Source: a bacterium (GTDB lineage Bacteria; Armatimonadota; Zipacnadia; Zipacnadales; UBA11051). Taken from it: a stretch of DNA of 64,000 nt. Of the stretch, positions 4,861-10,867 are shown piece by piece (the first letter of the stretch is position 1; each line of letters starts with the position of its first letter). The notes beneath the pieces are model-generated. The model searched no databases. It had not been told where the DNA came from and worked only from the letters and a program-made list of their open reading frames with translations. Made by a program: the position numbers and the translations under genes. Where the stretch lies: the NCBI GenBank assembly GCA_030604405.1, contig JAUVVY010000024.1:301-64300 (forward strand). The letters run 5' to 3'.

Positions 4861-5085
4861 GTCGTTTAGACCAGCCCGACACCGACGCCCTACTCCCTCG
4901 CCAGATACTCCCCGCTGCCGAGCCCTCCCCATCGCGTGGGTCGGGCTTTCCAGCCCGACACCGACGCCCTACTCCCTCCACAAATACTCCCCGCTGCCGA
5001 GCCCTCCCCATCGCGTGGGTCGGGCTTTCCAGCCCGACACCGACGCCCTACTCTCTCGCCAGATACTCCCCGGTGCTAAGCCATT
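4861..5085. repeat. Tandem array of a 79-bp unit (about 2.8 copies) that overlaps the 3' end of proA
   Basis: Unit starts at 4871, 4950 and 5029. Each unit carries the hairpin gtcgggctttccagcccgac plus a copy of proA's last codons (GEYLARE-stop), read on the minus strand. Confidence 0.75.
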
Positions 5086-6301
5086 TGTAGGTCGTCAGCT
5101 CGCGGATGCCGACCGGCCCGCGTGCATGCAGCCGATTCGTCGAGATGCCGATCTCCGCGCCCATTCCGAACTGCCCGCCATCGGTAAACCTCGTCGAGGC
5201 GTTGTGATACAGGCAGGCCGAATCGATCTCCGCCATGAACCGCCGCGCCGCCTCCGCGTCATCCGTGAAGATCGCCTCGGAATGGCTCGACGAGTATTTC
5301 TGGATATTGGCAATCGCCTCGCCTAGAGAGTCTACCACGTCCACGCTGATAATCAAGTCCAGATATTCGGTGTCGAAGTCTTCTTCAGTCGCCGCCACGA
5401 CATTTTCGCACACTTCTCGCACCCGCTCGGTCCCACGCACCTCCACACCGCAGGCCTGCAAATCCGCGACGATGGCCTGCAATGCCTCCATATTATCCGC
5501 ATGTACCCACAGGTTCTCGACCGCGTTGCAGACGCCCGGCCGCTGGACCTTGGCATTGTTCACGCAGGCCACCGTGCCCGGGATGTCGCAGGATGCGTCC
5601 ACGTAGATGTTGCACAGGCCGCGGTCGTGCTTGAGCACCGGCACCGAGGCGTTCTCGACCACCGCACGGATCAGGCCCTGCCCGCCGCGCGGGACGATCA
5701 GGTCCACGTACTCATCCGCCCGGATCATCTCCTGGACGCCCTGGCGGTCGGTGGACTCGATTATCTCCACACACGAGCCCGGCAGGCCGACCTGCTCACA
5801 GGCCTCGGACAGCAGCTTTGCCAGCGCGATGTTGGAGTTGATGGCCTCCTTGCCCCCGCGCAGCAGCACCGCATTGCCCGACTTGATGCACAGGCCGGCG
5901 GCGTCGGCGGTCACATTGGGCCGCGACTCATAGACGATCCCGATGACGCCCAGCGGCACGCTGACCTTCTTGATTTGCAGGCCGTTGGGCCGCACGGTCT
6001 CGGAGAGCACGATCCCGAGCGGGTCATCGAAGGTAGCGACCTGTTCCAGGCCGACGGCCATATCCTCGATGCGCTCATCGGTCAGCAGCAGCCGGTCGAG
6101 CATCGCCGAGGACAGCCCGGCCTCTTGGCCGGCTTTCATATCGGCGTTATTAGCCTCTTTGATCGCCGGCCCAGAGCCGCGTATCTTATTCACCATCGCG
6201 ATCAGCGCGGCATTACGCTTTTCGTCGCTGCTGATCCGGAGAGCGCCTGCGGCCTCTCTGGCCCCCTGCGCCTTCGTCAACACTTCCTGCTTGATGTCCA
6301 T
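5048..6301 (-). CDS. proA: Gamma-glutamyl phosphate reductase
   Basis: Aldehyde-dehydrogenase-fold ProA sequence, about 417 aa. Start taken at MDIKQEVL (6301) rather than the longer ORF-track extension to 6529. Confidence 0.9.
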   Translation of the reverse strand: MDIKQEVLTKAQGAREAAGALRISSDEKRNAALIAMVNKIRGSGPAIKEANNADMKAGQEAGLSSAMLDRLLLTDERIEDMAVGLEQVATFDDPLGIVLSETVRPNGLQIKKVSVPLGVIGIVYESRPNVTADAAGLCIKSGNAVLLRGGKEAINSNIALAKLLSEACEQVGLPGSCVEIIESTDRQGVQEMIRADEYVDLIVPRGGQGLIRAVVENASVPVLKHDRGLCNIYVDASCDIPGTVACVNNAKVQRPGVCNAVENLWVHADNMEALQAIVADLQACGVEVRGTERVREVCENVVAATEEDFDTEYLDLIISVDVVDSLGEAIANIQKYSSSHSEAIFTDDAEAARRFMAEIDSACLYHNASTRFTDGGQFGMGAEIGISTNRLHARGPVGIRELTTYKWLSTGEYLARE

Positions 6302-6410
6302 ATCTGATTCTCCAGAGAGTTGGGATCTTCGGTAGTATATTTGTGCGTCAGAATACCGAGGTCGCCATGGATGCAATGAGACCTCTGGGCGAAAAGCTTT
6401 GGAGATGGTA

Positions 6411-7028
6411 CTACGAACAAAGCTCTGTGGCAATACGAGCGAGTCTAGTGGCATAGTACTCATAGCGCGTCTCAGGTATGGGACTAATGGTGAACGTAGT
6501 GCGCAGGAAGGCGCATACCTTTCGATCACGTGGCGCCAAGGAATGATGAGCCACGACCTGCCTGTTGAATACGTTCAGCGCATGGCGGCTCTGATGGGCT
6601 ATCGCGTTGCGTATGCATACGCTTTGGTCCAGAAAGGCACGATCATCACCCGACATCGATGAAAAGGGACGGCCCCCCCGAAAAAAGGCTTCGGCCATCT
6701 CGATAGTGCGGTCGAATGGCAACCAGTCCACCCATTTCCGCTGGCCTCTGATCACGTCCCGCGCCACCTGTTTAGACCCCACCTGGATTCTTGGCCTTAT
6801 GTCGGCTCTTGCCCCCACAGCGCCACACAGCAAGCTCACAAATAGCTCTTCGATGAGGGCCTCAAAAGAGGTTATGCAGCGCAGGTAGAGGGCTTCATAT
6901 ATTTGCTCGACGTCCCGACGCGAGAGTTGGCCGTCCTGGTGCAGCGCCTCTTGCTTCCGGCGCAATCGGTCCAGCGCGTCGATGTGCTTAACGTAGTCTT
7001 TCGCCAAGTGCGACGAAGCCTTAGCCAA
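6411..7028 (-). CDS. All-alpha protein with an R-x4-H (RNAIAH) motif; putative HEPN-like partner of the upstream DUF262 gene
   Basis: A TTG start 7 nt downstream of AAGGAG overlaps the DUF262 stop codon (ttggctaa), which indicates translational coupling. Helical N-terminal region plus CIRNAIAHQ. Lower GC than the flanks. HEPN is inferred from the motif alone. Confidence 0.45.
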   Translation of the reverse strand: MAKASSHLAKDYVKHIDALDRLRRKQEALHQDGQLSRRDVEQIYEALYLRCITSFEALIEELFVSLLCGAVGARADIRPRIQVGSKQVARDVIRGQRKWVDWLPFDRTIEMAEAFFRGGRPFSSMSGDDRAFLDQSVCIRNAIAHQSRHALNVFNRQVVAHHSLAPRDRKVCAFLRTTFTISPIPETRYEYYATRLARIATELCS

Positions 7029-8088
7029 CTCCGCACTCCTTGGCCAGGAATTCGAGTACTGTTCTTCGAGAGGAGACGTGTGTGGTCCTGCGCGCAAGAG
7101 CTTCAGCAACTTCCTGCGAGACGTCTTTGTCGGCAATCCGTGCACTGGCTCGGAGTAGGCCCTGCCTCATTCCTGGGGGCGGCTTTCGGGCGGCCTTTCG
7201 CGTGAGTGGAGAATGCAGGCCAAATGACACGTCGTACACCAGTGCGAAAAGGTCGTAGAAGAGGGGTATCCTCTTCAATGGGAGCTCAGCTAAGTCCTTC
7301 CCCAGTAGGTTGTCTATAGTGTCCATGACTTTGCGGAAACGGCGAGATACTTGGCTTTGGTCCTCGAATTTGTCTTCATGTTTATTGTACAATCTGTTTA
7401 GTGCAGCGCTTTGCTTGCCTACTATTCCGTCATACATTAGCTGGGCGAATTCACTTGTGAGCTCAACCTCCTGCATTCGGGCGATCTGGTTTTCCTTGAA
7501 AACTTGGAAGTTACGCCAGCGCTCAAGCTGCTCATAAGCCAAGGTGTACATGCATTGTTTGAATGCGCCGAAGAAGTTAGCGTTTCGGAGTTCCTGAGGG
7601 TTGAGTTTGACACCTGTCGCGTTCATTCTAGAGAATATCTGGAGTACCTCAGCATCGTCCGTACCCGGCGGGAGTACATGGACACTGAACTGGTAGTCGG
7701 CAATGCGGGTCCGGAACTCCTCCTCCAATTCAGCAAATGGTCGCCCCGCCATATCAGCGTTGTGTTGTTTGCTCACCGTAAACGCGTCCTTGGTTGGGTC
7801 GAAGTCGCATAAGCAATCTGGGTCTATGAATCCGAGCACTGTACGGAGGCGCTGCTGGCCATCCACGACCTCGCGCTTGGGGCGCAGGGACTTGCGGTCG
7901 GTCCTCATGCGGATGAATATGATGGGAATTGGCAAGCCTTTCACGATAGTATCGACTAGGTACGACTTGGCGGAAACGCTCCAGACCGGACGACGCTGGA
8001 AGCTAGGGCTCAGTTGTAGTGTCCCCGACCGCTGCCAGTCGAGAAAGTCCGACACGGTGAAAACAGTGCGCGTAATGTCCGTCAACAT
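7021..8088 (-). CDS. DUF262 (ParB/Srx-fold, GmrS-like N-terminal domain) protein
   Basis: Hallmark DGQQR motif (VVDGQQRLRTV) and N-terminal FQR motif (SPSFQRRPVW). Start taken at the ATG (MLTDITRT), which is preceded by GGAGAG. Lies in the lower-GC stretch. Confidence 0.7.
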   Translation of the reverse strand: MLTDITRTVFTVSDFLDWQRSGTLQLSPSFQRRPVWSVSAKSYLVDTIVKGLPIPIIFIRMRTDRKSLRPKREVVDGQQRLRTVLGFIDPDCLCDFDPTKDAFTVSKQHNADMAGRPFAELEEEFRTRIADYQFSVHVLPPGTDDAEVLQIFSRMNATGVKLNPQELRNANFFGAFKQCMYTLAYEQLERWRNFQVFKENQIARMQEVELTSEFAQLMYDGIVGKQSAALNRLYNKHEDKFEDQSQVSRRFRKVMDTIDNLLGKDLAELPLKRIPLFYDLFALVYDVSFGLHSPLTRKAARKPPPGMRQGLLRASARIADKDVSQEVAEALARRTTHVSSRRTVLEFLAKECGVG

Positions 8089-8344
8089 GCCATAACTCTC
8101 CTTGTCCTCGTGGTCTTGGTCGCCCCGCCTGGGGCGGGGCAGAAACCTACGGCTTGCCGGCCGCGTTCTTCCAAGGCCCAAGGATGTTACTTGGGCGTCC
8201 TCATGTGAGCCTCAGCTTGACACGACATTCTCTGATGCGATCCTCAATTCCTACGCGTGCGAGGAGTCTATGTGTAACATAGGCCACCGCAGAGTCTCGT
8301 CTGAGGCTGCCACGGGCTCTGGTATGGCTATGTGAAGGCCTGTG

Positions 8345-8587
8345 TTATGCCTCTTTCGGCATCGGCGGCGAGAATCCTGCACGGCAGGCGTCCTCACGCG
8401 GCCACCTCACACCCGTAGAAGCCGCCTCGCGACTGTGCTCCGCGGTCGCACGGGCCGTTGTCACTATGCCCAAACCGTCATTTCCCCCAATCCGGTAAGA
8501 CAGGTCGTAGTCACAATAGTATAAGCCAAAATCAGGATTAAGTGAAAGGGTATCGAGAGGCAGAACAGAGCGCCAGCGTCGCCGCAT
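8345..8587 (-). pseudogene. Diverged fragment matching the C-terminus of the glycosyltransferase at 9107..9922
   Basis: The 80-aa ORF (…DFGLYYCDYDLSYRIG…AEHSREAASTGVRWP…) is about 65–75% identical to residues ~200–271 of the 271-aa glycosyltransferase. It sits on the same strand but has lower GC and lacks the N-terminal two-thirds. Confidence 0.5.
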
Positions 8588-8643
8588 CAGCCTTACACAC
8601 TAATCCATGCACGTGCTGAAATCCGGGTACATCAATATTTTAG

Positions 8644-8673
8644 TTGACATTTCTTTCCTGAAGATGCTATGCT
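8644..8673 (+). promoter_or_regulatory. Sigma70-like promoter for the cold-shock gene (TTGACA, 18-nt spacer, TATGCT) with a leader of about 145 nt
   Basis: Strong match to the -35/-10 consensus in an AT-rich stretch. Long 5' UTRs are typical of csp genes. A AAGGAGG ribosome-binding site sits 10 nt before the ATG. Confidence 0.45.
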
Positions 8674-8817
8674 CAGTTTGCTTTGGTGGTCAAATGCATG
8701 CCAAAGTGATGCGGCAAAAAAGCTAGAGTTGTTGGCTGATAGCTTGATGCAGAGACGCACCCCTTCCCAAGCTAGGCCCGAATGGCTAGCTTATACCAAG
8801 AAGGAGGTGCGCCTCTT

Positions 8818-9021
8818 ATGGCTACAGGCAAAGTCAAGTGGTTCAACGACTCGAAAGGCTTTGGCTTCATCGAGACCGAAGATAGCGAAGATGTGTTCGT
8901 ACATTTCTCCGCTATTACCGGTGAAGGCTATCGCTCTCTCGCCGAGAACGACGAAGTCGAGTTCGACATCGTCCAGGACGGCAAAGGCCCTCGCGCTGAG
9001 AACGTTAGAGTCATTAGCTAA
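8818..9021 (+). CDS. cspA: Cold-shock protein (CspA family)
   Basis: 67 aa beginning [18 protein letters not shown], which includes the RNP1 motif, and continuing with VFVHFSAI (RNP2). Classic ribosome-binding site. Start taken at the internal ATG of the ORF track. Confidence 0.9.
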
Positions 9022-9050
9022 GTACAAGCTCGTTTGCCACGAACACGGAA

Positions 9051-9082
9051 GCCCCTGCTGAAATCTAGCAGGGGCTTTTTTG
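9051..9082 (+). terminator. Rho-independent terminator of the cold-shock gene
   Basis: GC-rich stem gcccctgct / agcaggggc with a 7-nt loop, followed by a run of six T, 30 nt after the stop codon. Confidence 0.75.
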
Positions 9083-9106
9083 CCCCGGGATAGCCGTGCG
9101 AGCGCA

Positions 9107-9922
9107 TCAGAAGTGCCATTTTTGGCGGAGGGTGTGGTATGCTGCGGCCTCGACGGCGTGGCGGGCGTCCTCATCCGGCCACCTGACACCCGTGGAAGCC
9201 GCCTCACGACTGTGCTCTGCGACCGCCCGGTCCGTGATCACCAGGTCCAAACCGGCATTTTCCCTGATCTGGTGCGACAGGTCGTGGTCGCAATAGTACA
9301 GGGCAAAATCAGGATCGGGTGAAACGCTGTCCAGAAGCAGCGTGGAGCGCGGGAGCCATAAGCAGGCCAGGTGCGCCCACCATAGCACGTCGAGGCGCGG
9401 CTGACGCTGGTCCCAGGAGCCGATCTCCGTGCCGAGCTTCAGGCCGAGGAAGCTGCGCTCGGTCTCCTCGCCGCCGCTCATGCCGCCAAATGAGGAGATG
9501 GTGTTGCCGCCGACCTCAGTATAAAGCGGCGCGACCGCTCCGGTCCGCTCGCCGTGCAGCGCATGGGCCTCGCGGAAGGCCTCGACGATGCCGGGCCGGG
9601 CTATGACATCGGACTCCACGACCAGCAGTGCCTCGGAGCCGTTCTCGCGGGCGAGCCCGAAAGCATGGCCCAGCGACAGGCCCATGTTTGGCGAGTCCTC
9701 GGCGCCGAGTTCGCGGCAATGATACACCGCGCGCTGCCCGATCTCCTGCCCGTCGCGGATAACCGGGCCGGCTGACGCGGCGTACAGTTCCGCATCCGGC
9801 TGTGGCGAGAAGTCATCGCCGATCAGGTGCACGAAAGACGCCGGGACGACCTGCTCCAGCGCGGCGAAAGTGCGGCTCGCCACATCGTAGCGGCCGTGCA
9901 CCGGGGTGAAGAGTGTGATCAT
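9107..9922 (-). CDS. Glycosyltransferase (GT2-like)
   Basis: 271 aa with a glycosyltransferase-like fold pattern. Its C-terminal third is paralogous to the fragment at 8345..8587. Confidence 0.55.
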   Translation of the reverse strand: MITLFTPVHGRYDVASRTFAALEQVVPASFVHLIGDDFSPQPDAELYAASAGPVIRDGQEIGQRAVYHCRELGAEDSPNMGLSLGHAFGLARENGSEALLVVESDVIARPGIVEAFREAHALHGERTGAVAPLYTEVGGNTISSFGGMSGGEETERSFLGLKLGTEIGSWDQRQPRLDVLWWAHLACLWLPRSTLLLDSVSPDPDFALYYCDHDLSHQIRENAGLDLVITDRAVAEHSREAASTGVRWPDEDARHAVEAAAYHTLRQKWHF

Positions 9923-10019
9923 GGGATTGTTATCCTAGCGTTTGTGAGCCGGCGGGCGGCTATGGCGGACAAGCCCGCGGCCTACAATGAATGCCTCCAA
10001 ACGACGACGACGACACCTC

Positions 10020-10090
10020 CTAACCCCCTGGCCCCCTTCCCTATCAGGGAAGGGGGAATCAAAGGGGGATAGGCAAGGCTGCCCTGTCCA
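10020..10090. repeat. Internal fragment of the family A MITE-like element (copy 2, both termini missing)
   Basis: ctaaccccctggcccccttccctatcagggaagggggaatcaaagggggatagg matches the core of copies 1, 3 and 4. The gtaactactcacc and tgagtacttac ends are absent. Confidence 0.4.
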
Positions 10091-10127: not shown

Positions 10128-10628
10128 TCAATCGGTCTCGGATTCGGGCGGGGCATCCAACTGCGGCAGGCGGGCCAGGACCGCGCGAACCACAACAGCT
10201 ACCACCAGCCCGATCCCAAACAGGGCAGCGCCAGCATAGACGCCGAAAAGCGCCGCAGCCACCGCGGCCATCGCCCCTGCATCCGCAGACAATAGCAATA
10301 ACTCGTAGGCGCGACGATGCTCCCGATCGAGGTGCTTTCCAAGCCACGCGGCCGCCAGCGCGACCACCACCGCGCCGGTCAGCGGAAGAAGTATCATCAT
10401 CGGCCGGTGCAGTTTCGGAGGCAATATCAACGCCCAGGCCGCGCCGATGAACGCCCCGGCAACTACCCCGCACATGCCGTAGCCGAACACCGTCAGATAG
10501 GCCCGCGGTTGCGGTGCCGTGCGCGTCGCAAAATCGTACCGGCACTGTGGGCACTTTCCGCTGAGTTTGTCCAATGGCAGCGGAAAGCCACAGTTGGGGC
10601 AAATTCGGTCAGAGTCGCGCCTGCTCAT
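10128..10628 (-). CDS. Membrane protein with an N-terminal zinc-ribbon (CPNCG…CPQC) and 3–4 predicted transmembrane helices
   Basis: A C-x2-C…C-x2-C motif is followed by hydrophobic segments. I recognise no family. Confidence 0.5.
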   Translation of the reverse strand: MSRRDSDRICPNCGFPLPLDKLSGKCPQCRYDFATRTAPQPRAYLTVFGYGMCGVVAGAFIGAAWALILPPKLHRPMMILLPLTGAVVVALAAAWLGKHLDREHRRAYELLLLSADAGAMAAVAAALFGVYAGAALFGIGLVVAVVVRAVLARLPQLDAPPESETD

Positions 10629-10777: not shown

Positions 10778-10867
10778 GTAACTACTCACCTATCCCCCTA
10801 GCCCCCTTCCCTGGTAGGGAAGGGGGAATCAAAGGGGGTTAGGCCAAGCCACAAGCTGAGTATTTGC
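10778..10867. mobile_element. MITE-like repeat, family A copy 3
   Basis: gtaactactcacc…cccccttccctggtagggaagggggaatcaaagggggttaggccaagccacaagctgagtatttgc. Lies immediately upstream of the rhamnose isomerase gene. Confidence 0.55.

Follow-up and report, generated by a model that had tools for sequence, protein, structure and literature searches.

A DUF262-HEPN gene pair upstream of proA on an Armatimonadota contig: an unannotated variant of the PD-T4-2 class of defence systems

The two-gene locus

The present work concerns a compact pair of overlapping genes, A and B, on the minus strand of a 64,000-nucleotide (nt) stretch of contig JAUVVY010000024.1 (assembly GCA_030604405.1, positions 301 to 64,300) from a bacterium of the Armatimonadota. 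The whole of this stretch is referred to as the window, and the coordinates of the pair are window positions. Gene A codes for a DUF262 protein and gene B for a small helical protein, and together they occupy 1.68 kb. An earlier note, made from the sequence by itself, had singled out the pair as a candidate defence module. Its sequence-level statements are correct, and only the glycosyltransferase label which it gave to a flanking open reading frame (ORF) is unverified: the ORF coordinates, the TTG start lying over the DUF262 stop and the AAGGAG all match the sequence. The features of the pair are listed here.

7021-8088, minus strand: gene A, with its ATG start at 8088 and TAA stop at 7023-7021, 355 amino acids (aa)
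8098-8103, minus strand: ribosome-binding site of gene A, AAGGAG, 9 nt 5' of the ATG, read from the sequence
7570-8049, minus strand: DUF262 domain of A (GmrSD_N; ParB/Srx-fold nucleoside triphosphatase, NTPase), residues 14-173, the extent of the Pfam match
7849-7863, minus strand: DGQQR of A (residues 76-80), a motif which belongs to the nucleotide pocket in GmrSD-like proteins, read from the sequence
7024-7566, minus strand: C-terminal helical domain of A, residues 175-355, part of which aligns with the region after DUF262 in NsnA
7021-7028, minus strand: A/B junction TTGGCTAA, the 8-nt overlap of the two genes, which contains both the TTG start of B and the TAA stop of A
7036-7041, minus strand: ribosome-binding site of gene B, AAGGAG, 7 nt 5' of the TTG, within the 3' end of A, from the sequence
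6411-7028, minus strand: gene B, TTG start at 7028-7026, 205 aa, a stand-alone HEPN-fold protein and predicted ribonuclease (RNase) effector
6861-6863, minus strand: E56 of B, an acidic residue of the long pair of N-terminal helices, invariant in alignments A1 and A3 (below)
6594-6611, minus strand: R-x4-H motif of B, R140-N-A-I-A-H145, read from the sequence

The TTG start of B is backed by homology, its homologues of ~205 aa starting at the aligned position, and the 8-nt overlap is the most frequent type of A/B junction among homologous loci (n = 15 loci). As their arrangement indicates, A and B are translationally coupled via this overlapping junction.

Gene A encodes a DUF262 protein without DUF1524

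The sole significant Pfam match of A is GmrSD_N (E = 1.2e-23, residues 14-173), and a Pfam scan of A finds no DUF1524. The protein carries SPSFQRR and VVDGQQR, and its earlier assignment to DUF262 from the DGQQR and FQR motifs is upheld by the GmrSD_N match and the intact motifs. The absence of the usual DUF1524 HNH partner, also remarked upon earlier, holds as well, GmrSD_N being the only significant domain of A and B being an all-helical HEPN protein. In GmrSD, BrxU and SspE, the DGQQR pocket of DUF262 is responsible for NTPase activity and DUF1524 for DNA cleavage (review PMC10952713).

Among the PADLOC models, A matches NsnA (E = 1.4e-43, 148 bits) over model positions 45-295 of 385, the match reaching residue 265, and with a lower score PD-T4-2_A (E = 3.3e-29, 100 bits) over residues 13-262. 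The homologues of A, ~357 aa long, number more than 2,900; the best 120, which include proteins from an Elusimicrobiota metagenome-assembled genome (MAG) and an Asgard archaeal MAG, are 50-57% identical to A, two closer ones excepted. In 21 homologues (alignment A2), F30 Q31 R32 R33, D76 G77 Q78 Q79 R80 and an N-x-T-G-x-x-L-N-x-Q-E-L-R block are invariant, and the helical domain contains conserved EVExTSE and RRTTHxxSR blocks. The AlphaFold model of A (predicted local distance difference test score, pLDDT, 87.6) is all-helical from residue 164 on. Its best Foldseek match is BrxU (probability 0.99), followed by ParB/Noc CTPase domains, and phmmer of A against the PDB gives no match.

Gene B encodes a predicted HEPN protein of an unannotated family

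Direct scans of B against Pfam, NCBIfam and PADLOC give no match (Pfam and PADLOC at E <= 1). The protein has 31 close homologues, and a profile search with a cut-off of E <= 1e-3 retrieves 1,666 cluster representatives, of which the best 150 are mostly ~200-210 aa long. Two alignments describe this family, hereafter family B: A1, with 25 sequences (the window protein and 24 homologues), and A3, with 69 homologues from species genomes of many phyla. The structure model of B, built from the 25-sequence alignment, is confident (pLDDT 94.5) and all-helical, and comparison of the predicted structure identifies the fold as a helical-bundle HEPN, with the stand-alone HEPN toxins, HepT/SO_3166 and MNT-HEPN, as closest matches. 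Run against the PDB sequences, the B profile returns noise only, and tblastn of B against plasmids gives no match.

Proteins of the HEPN superfamily are marked by an R-x4-6-H motif, in which the arginine is usually followed by a polar residue, and by metal-independent RNase activity. Both the motif and the polar residue are present in B, within CIRNAIAHQ (residues 138-146). R140, H145 and E56 are invariant in the 69 homologues, E56 also in A1, and N141, S147, G119, P121 and F122 are nearly invariant in the same 69. Sub-threshold Pfam matches of the family concentrate on HEPN_RiboL-PSP, the most frequent (14 of the 25 sequences and 21 of the 69), and on HEPN_Swt1. The best HEPN_RiboL-PSP E-values are only 3.4e-4 and 1.3e-3 in the two sets, the gathering threshold of that family (PF18735, 28.4 bits) is not reached, and B of the window has no match to it at E <= 1.

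Given the confident all-helical model, the invariant motif residues and these weak HEPN matches, B is called a HEPN protein whose active site appears intact and whose family is outside Pfam, NCBIfam and PADLOC coverage. The all-helical R-x4-H protein of the earlier note has thus gained a predicted HEPN fold and a motif whose arginine and histidine are invariant in A3; of the checks proposed there, structure prediction gave this fold, and the searches with hidden Markov models (HMMs) gave no direct match, those of the homologues to Pfam being sub-threshold. In five loci (L069, L072, L073, L075 and L078, from Actinomycetota and an alphaproteobacterial MAG) the family-B protein measures 272-316 aa instead of ~205, and extra sequence is therefore present.

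The two genes occur together across phyla and on viral contigs

The GTDB was scanned with the A alignment as query and one genome per species; 543 loci were confirmed and the best 80 examined for B. In 77 of these 80, B lies directly downstream of A, and the other three stop at a contig edge, so that the pair is present in 77/77 evaluable species loci, which span many phyla; this is the outcome of the neighbourhood survey that the earlier note had suggested. In the converse direction, all five loci found via B, with unrelated flanks, carry a GmrSD_N gene immediately upstream, as do L092 and L093. In IMG/VR, an A-like gene of full length was evaluable at 30 loci, and at 28 of them an ORF of 205-240 aa with RNxxAH lies downstream, a motif which is kept even in those viral-contig partners that are too diverged for the family HMM. 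At most A/B junctions the genes overlap by up to 23 nt or are separated by a few nt; a few values are larger, and all three relative frames occur.

No third partner is conserved. The 112 flanking ORFs match 130 different Pfam families, some of which recur, each in 2-3 ORFs, among them those of DNA methyltransferases, phage integrases and class I tRNA synthetases. The flanking genes vary between loci, and many loci are chromosomal, between housekeeping genes. Across the loci surveyed, the pairing is evidently obligate and the module mobile in character.

In five of the 77 species loci (L012, L017, L027, L052 and L074) two ORFs take the place of a single B gene, and L052 has a split A gene too; such loci reflect either the decay of the copies or errors in MAG assembly. 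A metagenomic pair (L001:172-3168) follows closely upon a C5 DNA methyltransferase and a HATPase_c_3 protein, beside transposase fragments, a context which is defence-island-like, unlike that of the window.

Mobile relatives and a second group of HEPN partners

Related pairs occur on a phage genome and on plasmids. In Escherichia phage vB_EcoM-689R6, a prophage-type genome, a DUF262 gene and a 216-aa RNacAH partner follow directly upon the integrase (L089:2477-4188). On the 3.9-kb E. coli plasmid pLR-27_3 (L090:52-1755), a pair of DUF262 and RiboL-PSP HEPN makes up most of the plasmid, together with a VbhA antitoxin gene; this pair scores 66 bits with the RiboL-PSP Pfam model and 169 bits with PD-T4-2_A. 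A further related pair resides on a conjugative actinobacterial plasmid (L091).

The partners from viral contigs and vB_EcoM-689R6 form an intermediate group, which links to family B (94.4%, E = 9e-8) and has no link to the RiboL-PSP group (4.8%). The genuine RiboL-PSP members paired with DUF262, such as that of pLR-27_3, align with family B at the motif only. Since family B and the viral group do not link to RiboL-PSP, at least two mutually unalignable lineages of HEPN partner accompany NsnA-like DUF262 proteins, and by these comparisons the window pair belongs to a lineage without an existing model.

Base composition and insertion site

The pair lies in a region of low guanine-plus-cytosine (GC) content.

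6330-9100, unstranded: low-GC stretch, which besides the pair includes a cold-shock protein gene and a truncated gene copy, from the composition profile

Along this stretch the GC content is 0.50-0.60, versus 0.61-0.71 in its flanks. That of the pair is 0.548, while windows of equal size across the whole window average 0.610 (standard deviation 0.022), and equally low values are found only in those that overlap the region of the pair. GC at third codon positions (GC3) is 0.63-0.65 in the pair versus 0.81-0.85 in proA, proB and a flanking 271-aa ORF (9107-9922, minus strand). The lower GC content claimed earlier is therefore real, the GC content of the pair being the lowest of the window and its GC3 below that of proA, proB and the 271-aa ORF, and on this compositional ground the pair looks horizontally acquired. 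Of the labels previously given to the flanks, proA is supported by an Aldedh match in Pfam, which likewise confirms proB (AA_kinase and PUA), whereas the supposed glycosyltransferase, the 271-aa ORF, has no Pfam match and its label is unverified.

In the window, proA comes directly after the pair on the same strand. The closest relative, L092:736-3083, has A and B proteins that are 80% and 75% identical to those of the window and the same 8-nt overlap, and it too lies directly upstream of proA (81% identical); its upstream neighbour is an HTH_3 gene, in the place taken by the truncated ORF copy in the window. Because both pairs adjoin proA, the insertion predates the split of the two lineages, and the insertion site is common to both and old.

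Relation to known systems

The earlier note did not recognise the combination of DUF262 with a stand-alone HEPN protein as a named system. The pairing is in fact known and named, since PD-T4-2 (2022) and the ParB-HEPN operons (2013) precede it. PD-T4-2, from E. coli ECOR65, is listed as 'DUF262, HEPN' with a size of ~1.5 kb (Vassallo et al. 2022, supplementary tables). Its B protein, encoded by the unannotated second coding sequence beside RCO39066.1 (contig QOYX01000002:338334-339873), matches HEPN_RiboL-PSP (HHpred, 97.8%). The system confers protection from T4 in its native host as well as after transfer, and its deletion from ECOR65 restores T4 plaquing (Vassallo et al. 2022). A RiboL-PSP HEPN 'operon with ParB' and a MAE_28990 HEPN 'operon with ParB nuclease and DNA methylase' were described by Anantharaman et al. 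(2013), and PD-lambda-5 consists of a ParB/HEPN fusion with a methyltransferase (Vassallo et al. 2022). The window pair shares with the last three the genetic linkage of a ParB-like protein to HEPN, with methyltransferases sometimes near. With PD-T4-2 it shares a compact arrangement, in which a DUF262 protein without DUF1524 is followed by a small stand-alone R-x4-H HEPN protein and by no other conserved gene. The A component matches the PD-T4-2_A model, although NsnA scores higher, and the PD-T4-2_B model is 168 positions long versus the 205 aa of B. The pair is a widespread, unannotated variant of this known defence type, the PD-T4-2 class, and not a new kind of system; its earlier description as a candidate defence module can now be read as membership of the DUF262-HEPN class to which the validated PD-T4-2 belongs.

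Several other systems share components with the pair. The best relative of A is NsnA of Menshen (NsnABC; Millman 2022), a ParB-DUF262 protein with a following helical domain, and the logic proposed for Menshen is that of a DUF262 DNA sensor which controls an RNase effector (PMC12065111). Menshen also has the ABC-ATPase NsnB and the inPIN-containing NsnC, whereas the window pair has neither; the ATPase transducer step is missing, because the HEPN gene is the only conserved partner. Membership of Menshen was rejected, as A is followed by the 205-aa HEPN gene and then by proA, and no ATPase is conserved in the flanks of related loci. The proteins GmrSD, BrxU and SspE resemble A in their DUF262 with DGQQR, BrxU being its best structural match, yet they are single polypeptides with a DUF1524 His-Me DNase or nickase effector, where the pair has a separate HEPN protein; GmrSD-type membership was rejected as neither A nor B has DUF1524. 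Dazbog (DzbAB) was rejected as well, DzbA being absent among the PADLOC matches of A at E <= 1; the DzbB model matched one of the 25 B homologues (E = 0.01) and none of the 69. Finally, the HepT/MntA-type toxins (SO_3166, PDB 5yep; 7ae2; HI0074, 1jog) are minimal HEPN domains of 120-145 aa, and such HEPN toxins of toxin-antitoxin (TA) systems pair with MNT nucleotidyltransferase antitoxins, whereas B has 205 aa, extra helices and a DUF262 partner.

A proposed function in defence

The reading preferred here, by analogy and with a probability of roughly 0.6, is that the pair constitutes a self-contained, horizontally acquired module against phages or mobile elements, in which A would gate the RNase B. 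It is supported by the homology of A to PD-T4-2_A and NsnA, both components of validated defence systems; by the related pairs beside a prophage integrase and on plasmids; and by the strict pairing, the coupled junctions, the foreign composition and the conservation of the motif in 69 B sequences. As a possible mechanism, A would be the sensor or switch that binds invading, possibly modified, DNA and couples this sensing to the binding or hydrolysis of nucleoside triphosphate (NTP), as DUF262 does in GmrSD, BrxU and SspE. It would control B in place of a DUF1524 DNase, probably within an A-B complex. Upon its release or activation, B may dimerise to form a composite HEPN RNase site and cut cellular and/or phage RNA, whereby translation and phage production would stop, and the outcome would be abortive or growth-arrest immunity.

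Four observations weigh against this reading. The PADLOC model PD-T4-2_B matches none of the 94 family-B sequences (25 + 69), which places the pair outside PD-T4-2 in the strict sense, although this model appears narrow, since bona fide RiboL-PSP partners of DUF262 reach E = 3.7e-5 at best. The alignment of family B by hhalign with a RiboL-PSP or PD-T4-2_B-like family, which was assembled around the HEPN partner of pLR-27_3, has a probability of 3.7%, with only RNxxAH aligned, and single-sequence-versus-profile, profile-profile, permissive and global hhalign all reduce the link to RNxxAH; because of both results, the homology of B to a validated effector extends only to fold and motif. No mechanistic study of PD-T4-2 was found in the searched literature, so that the sensor-to-effector logic is drawn by analogy. 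Lastly, the pair adjoins proA and not a recognisable defence island, in the closest relative as well as here.

Alternative explanations

The pair could instead be a TA-like addiction module which mainly stabilises its carrier mobile DNA with no sensing of phage, B being the HEPN RNase toxin and A the antitoxin. The likeness of the B model to stand-alone HEPN toxins is in keeping with this idea, as are the overlap of the two genes, the larger one first, and the relatives on plasmids and beside VbhA/Fic modules. Yet A is a large, enzyme-like protein whose NTP-pocket motifs are invariant and whose conservation exceeds that of B, features atypical of antitoxins; its known relatives are components of defence systems, and many loci are chromosomal, amid housekeeping genes. 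Addiction as the whole function is thus judged unlikely, while TA behaviour and abortive-infection defence are mutually compatible.

A second possibility, which we consider improbable, is a type IV-like, modification-dependent restriction in which A, as a ParB-like nuclease, would cut DNA and B would be a regulatory subunit or an accessory one that binds nucleic acid, and not an RNase. The best structural match of A, BrxU, is a GmrSD-family type IV enzyme, ParB domains have been treated as DNases in restriction-modification contexts (Anantharaman 2013), and DNA methyltransferases are among the few recurrent neighbours. DNA cleavage is, however, assigned to DUF1524, which is absent here, and NTPase activity and sensing to DUF262 (PMC10952713), and the invariant E/R/N/H set of B favours a catalytic over a degenerate HEPN.

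A housekeeping role in RNA processing or in the nucleoid, tied to the adjacent proline-biosynthesis genes, would suit the position upstream of proA on the same strand in both the window and L092; it is very unlikely, as the flanks are unrelated in other loci, the distribution is patchy over many phyla and includes viral contigs and plasmids, and GC3 is ~20 points below that of proA and proB.

The further alternative raised in the earlier note, a single DUF262-HEPN fusion gene split by a frameshift or sequencing error, recalls the fused ParB-HEPN proteins PD-lambda-5 ('ParB/HEPN') and Saro_3948 (Anantharaman 2013) and the overlap of the maximal ORFs of A and B across 7021-7145, but it is refuted by the junctions in all three relative frames (8-nt overlap commonest), by the AAGGAG that B has of its own, and by two separate genes of the same sizes in the 77 evaluable species loci, the 28 viral loci and L092 (75-80% identical), and it retains practically no credence.

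Other features of the neighbourhood

At the edge of the low-GC stretch, an 80-aa ORF (8345-8587, minus strand) duplicates, with 68% identity, the last 65 residues of the 271-aa ORF at 9107-9922, and beneath this likeness lies a DNA repeat (8383-8573 versus 9160-9350, 79%). The cold-shock protein gene csp (CSD; 8782-9021, plus strand) is situated between the two ORF copies. The arrangement of the 80-aa copy and csp looks like the remnant of a duplication or rearrangement.

Between proB and proA, a 79-nt unit occurs in three tandem copies (4871-5107), the second and third 96% and 73% identical to the first, and the third overlaps the 3' end of proA. A 61-nt element in two copies (87%; 10019-10079 and 10789-10849) flanks the ORF at 10128-10628, and each copy contains an internal hairpin, CCCCCTTCCCT...AGGGAAGGGGG. 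These elements look like intergenic repeats of the REP (repetitive extragenic palindromic) or MITE (miniature inverted-repeat transposable element) type.

Significance

The association of DUF262/ParB with HEPN has been published since 2013 and its role in defence validated in 2022, and the pair represents no new category of biology. The remaining interest is in the HEPN partner family, which is large, unannotated and undetected by defence models. The locus would be reported as a DUF262 protein next to a hypothetical protein, and model-based defence annotation probably misses the pair, because the B-component model of PADLOC does not match B, in spite of the strict conservation of the pair over hundreds of species as well as on viral contigs. 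A broader proposal, to which we give somewhat less than even odds, is that the pair represents a very widespread, unannotated DUF262-HEPN lineage missed by current defence-finder models (543 GTDB species genomes via A and 1,666 B cluster representatives, with many bacterial phyla, an Asgard MAG homologue of A and viral contigs), whose HEPN family would be distinct from PD-T4-2_B and in which a minimal DNA sensor would directly gate an RNase, in effect a Menshen without its ATPase transducer. Recognition of the pair extends the PD-T4-2 class to a second, larger lineage of HEPN partners, and offers a compact two-protein system in which the control of an RNase by a ParB-like NTPase, relevant to both PD-T4-2 and Menshen, may be studied.

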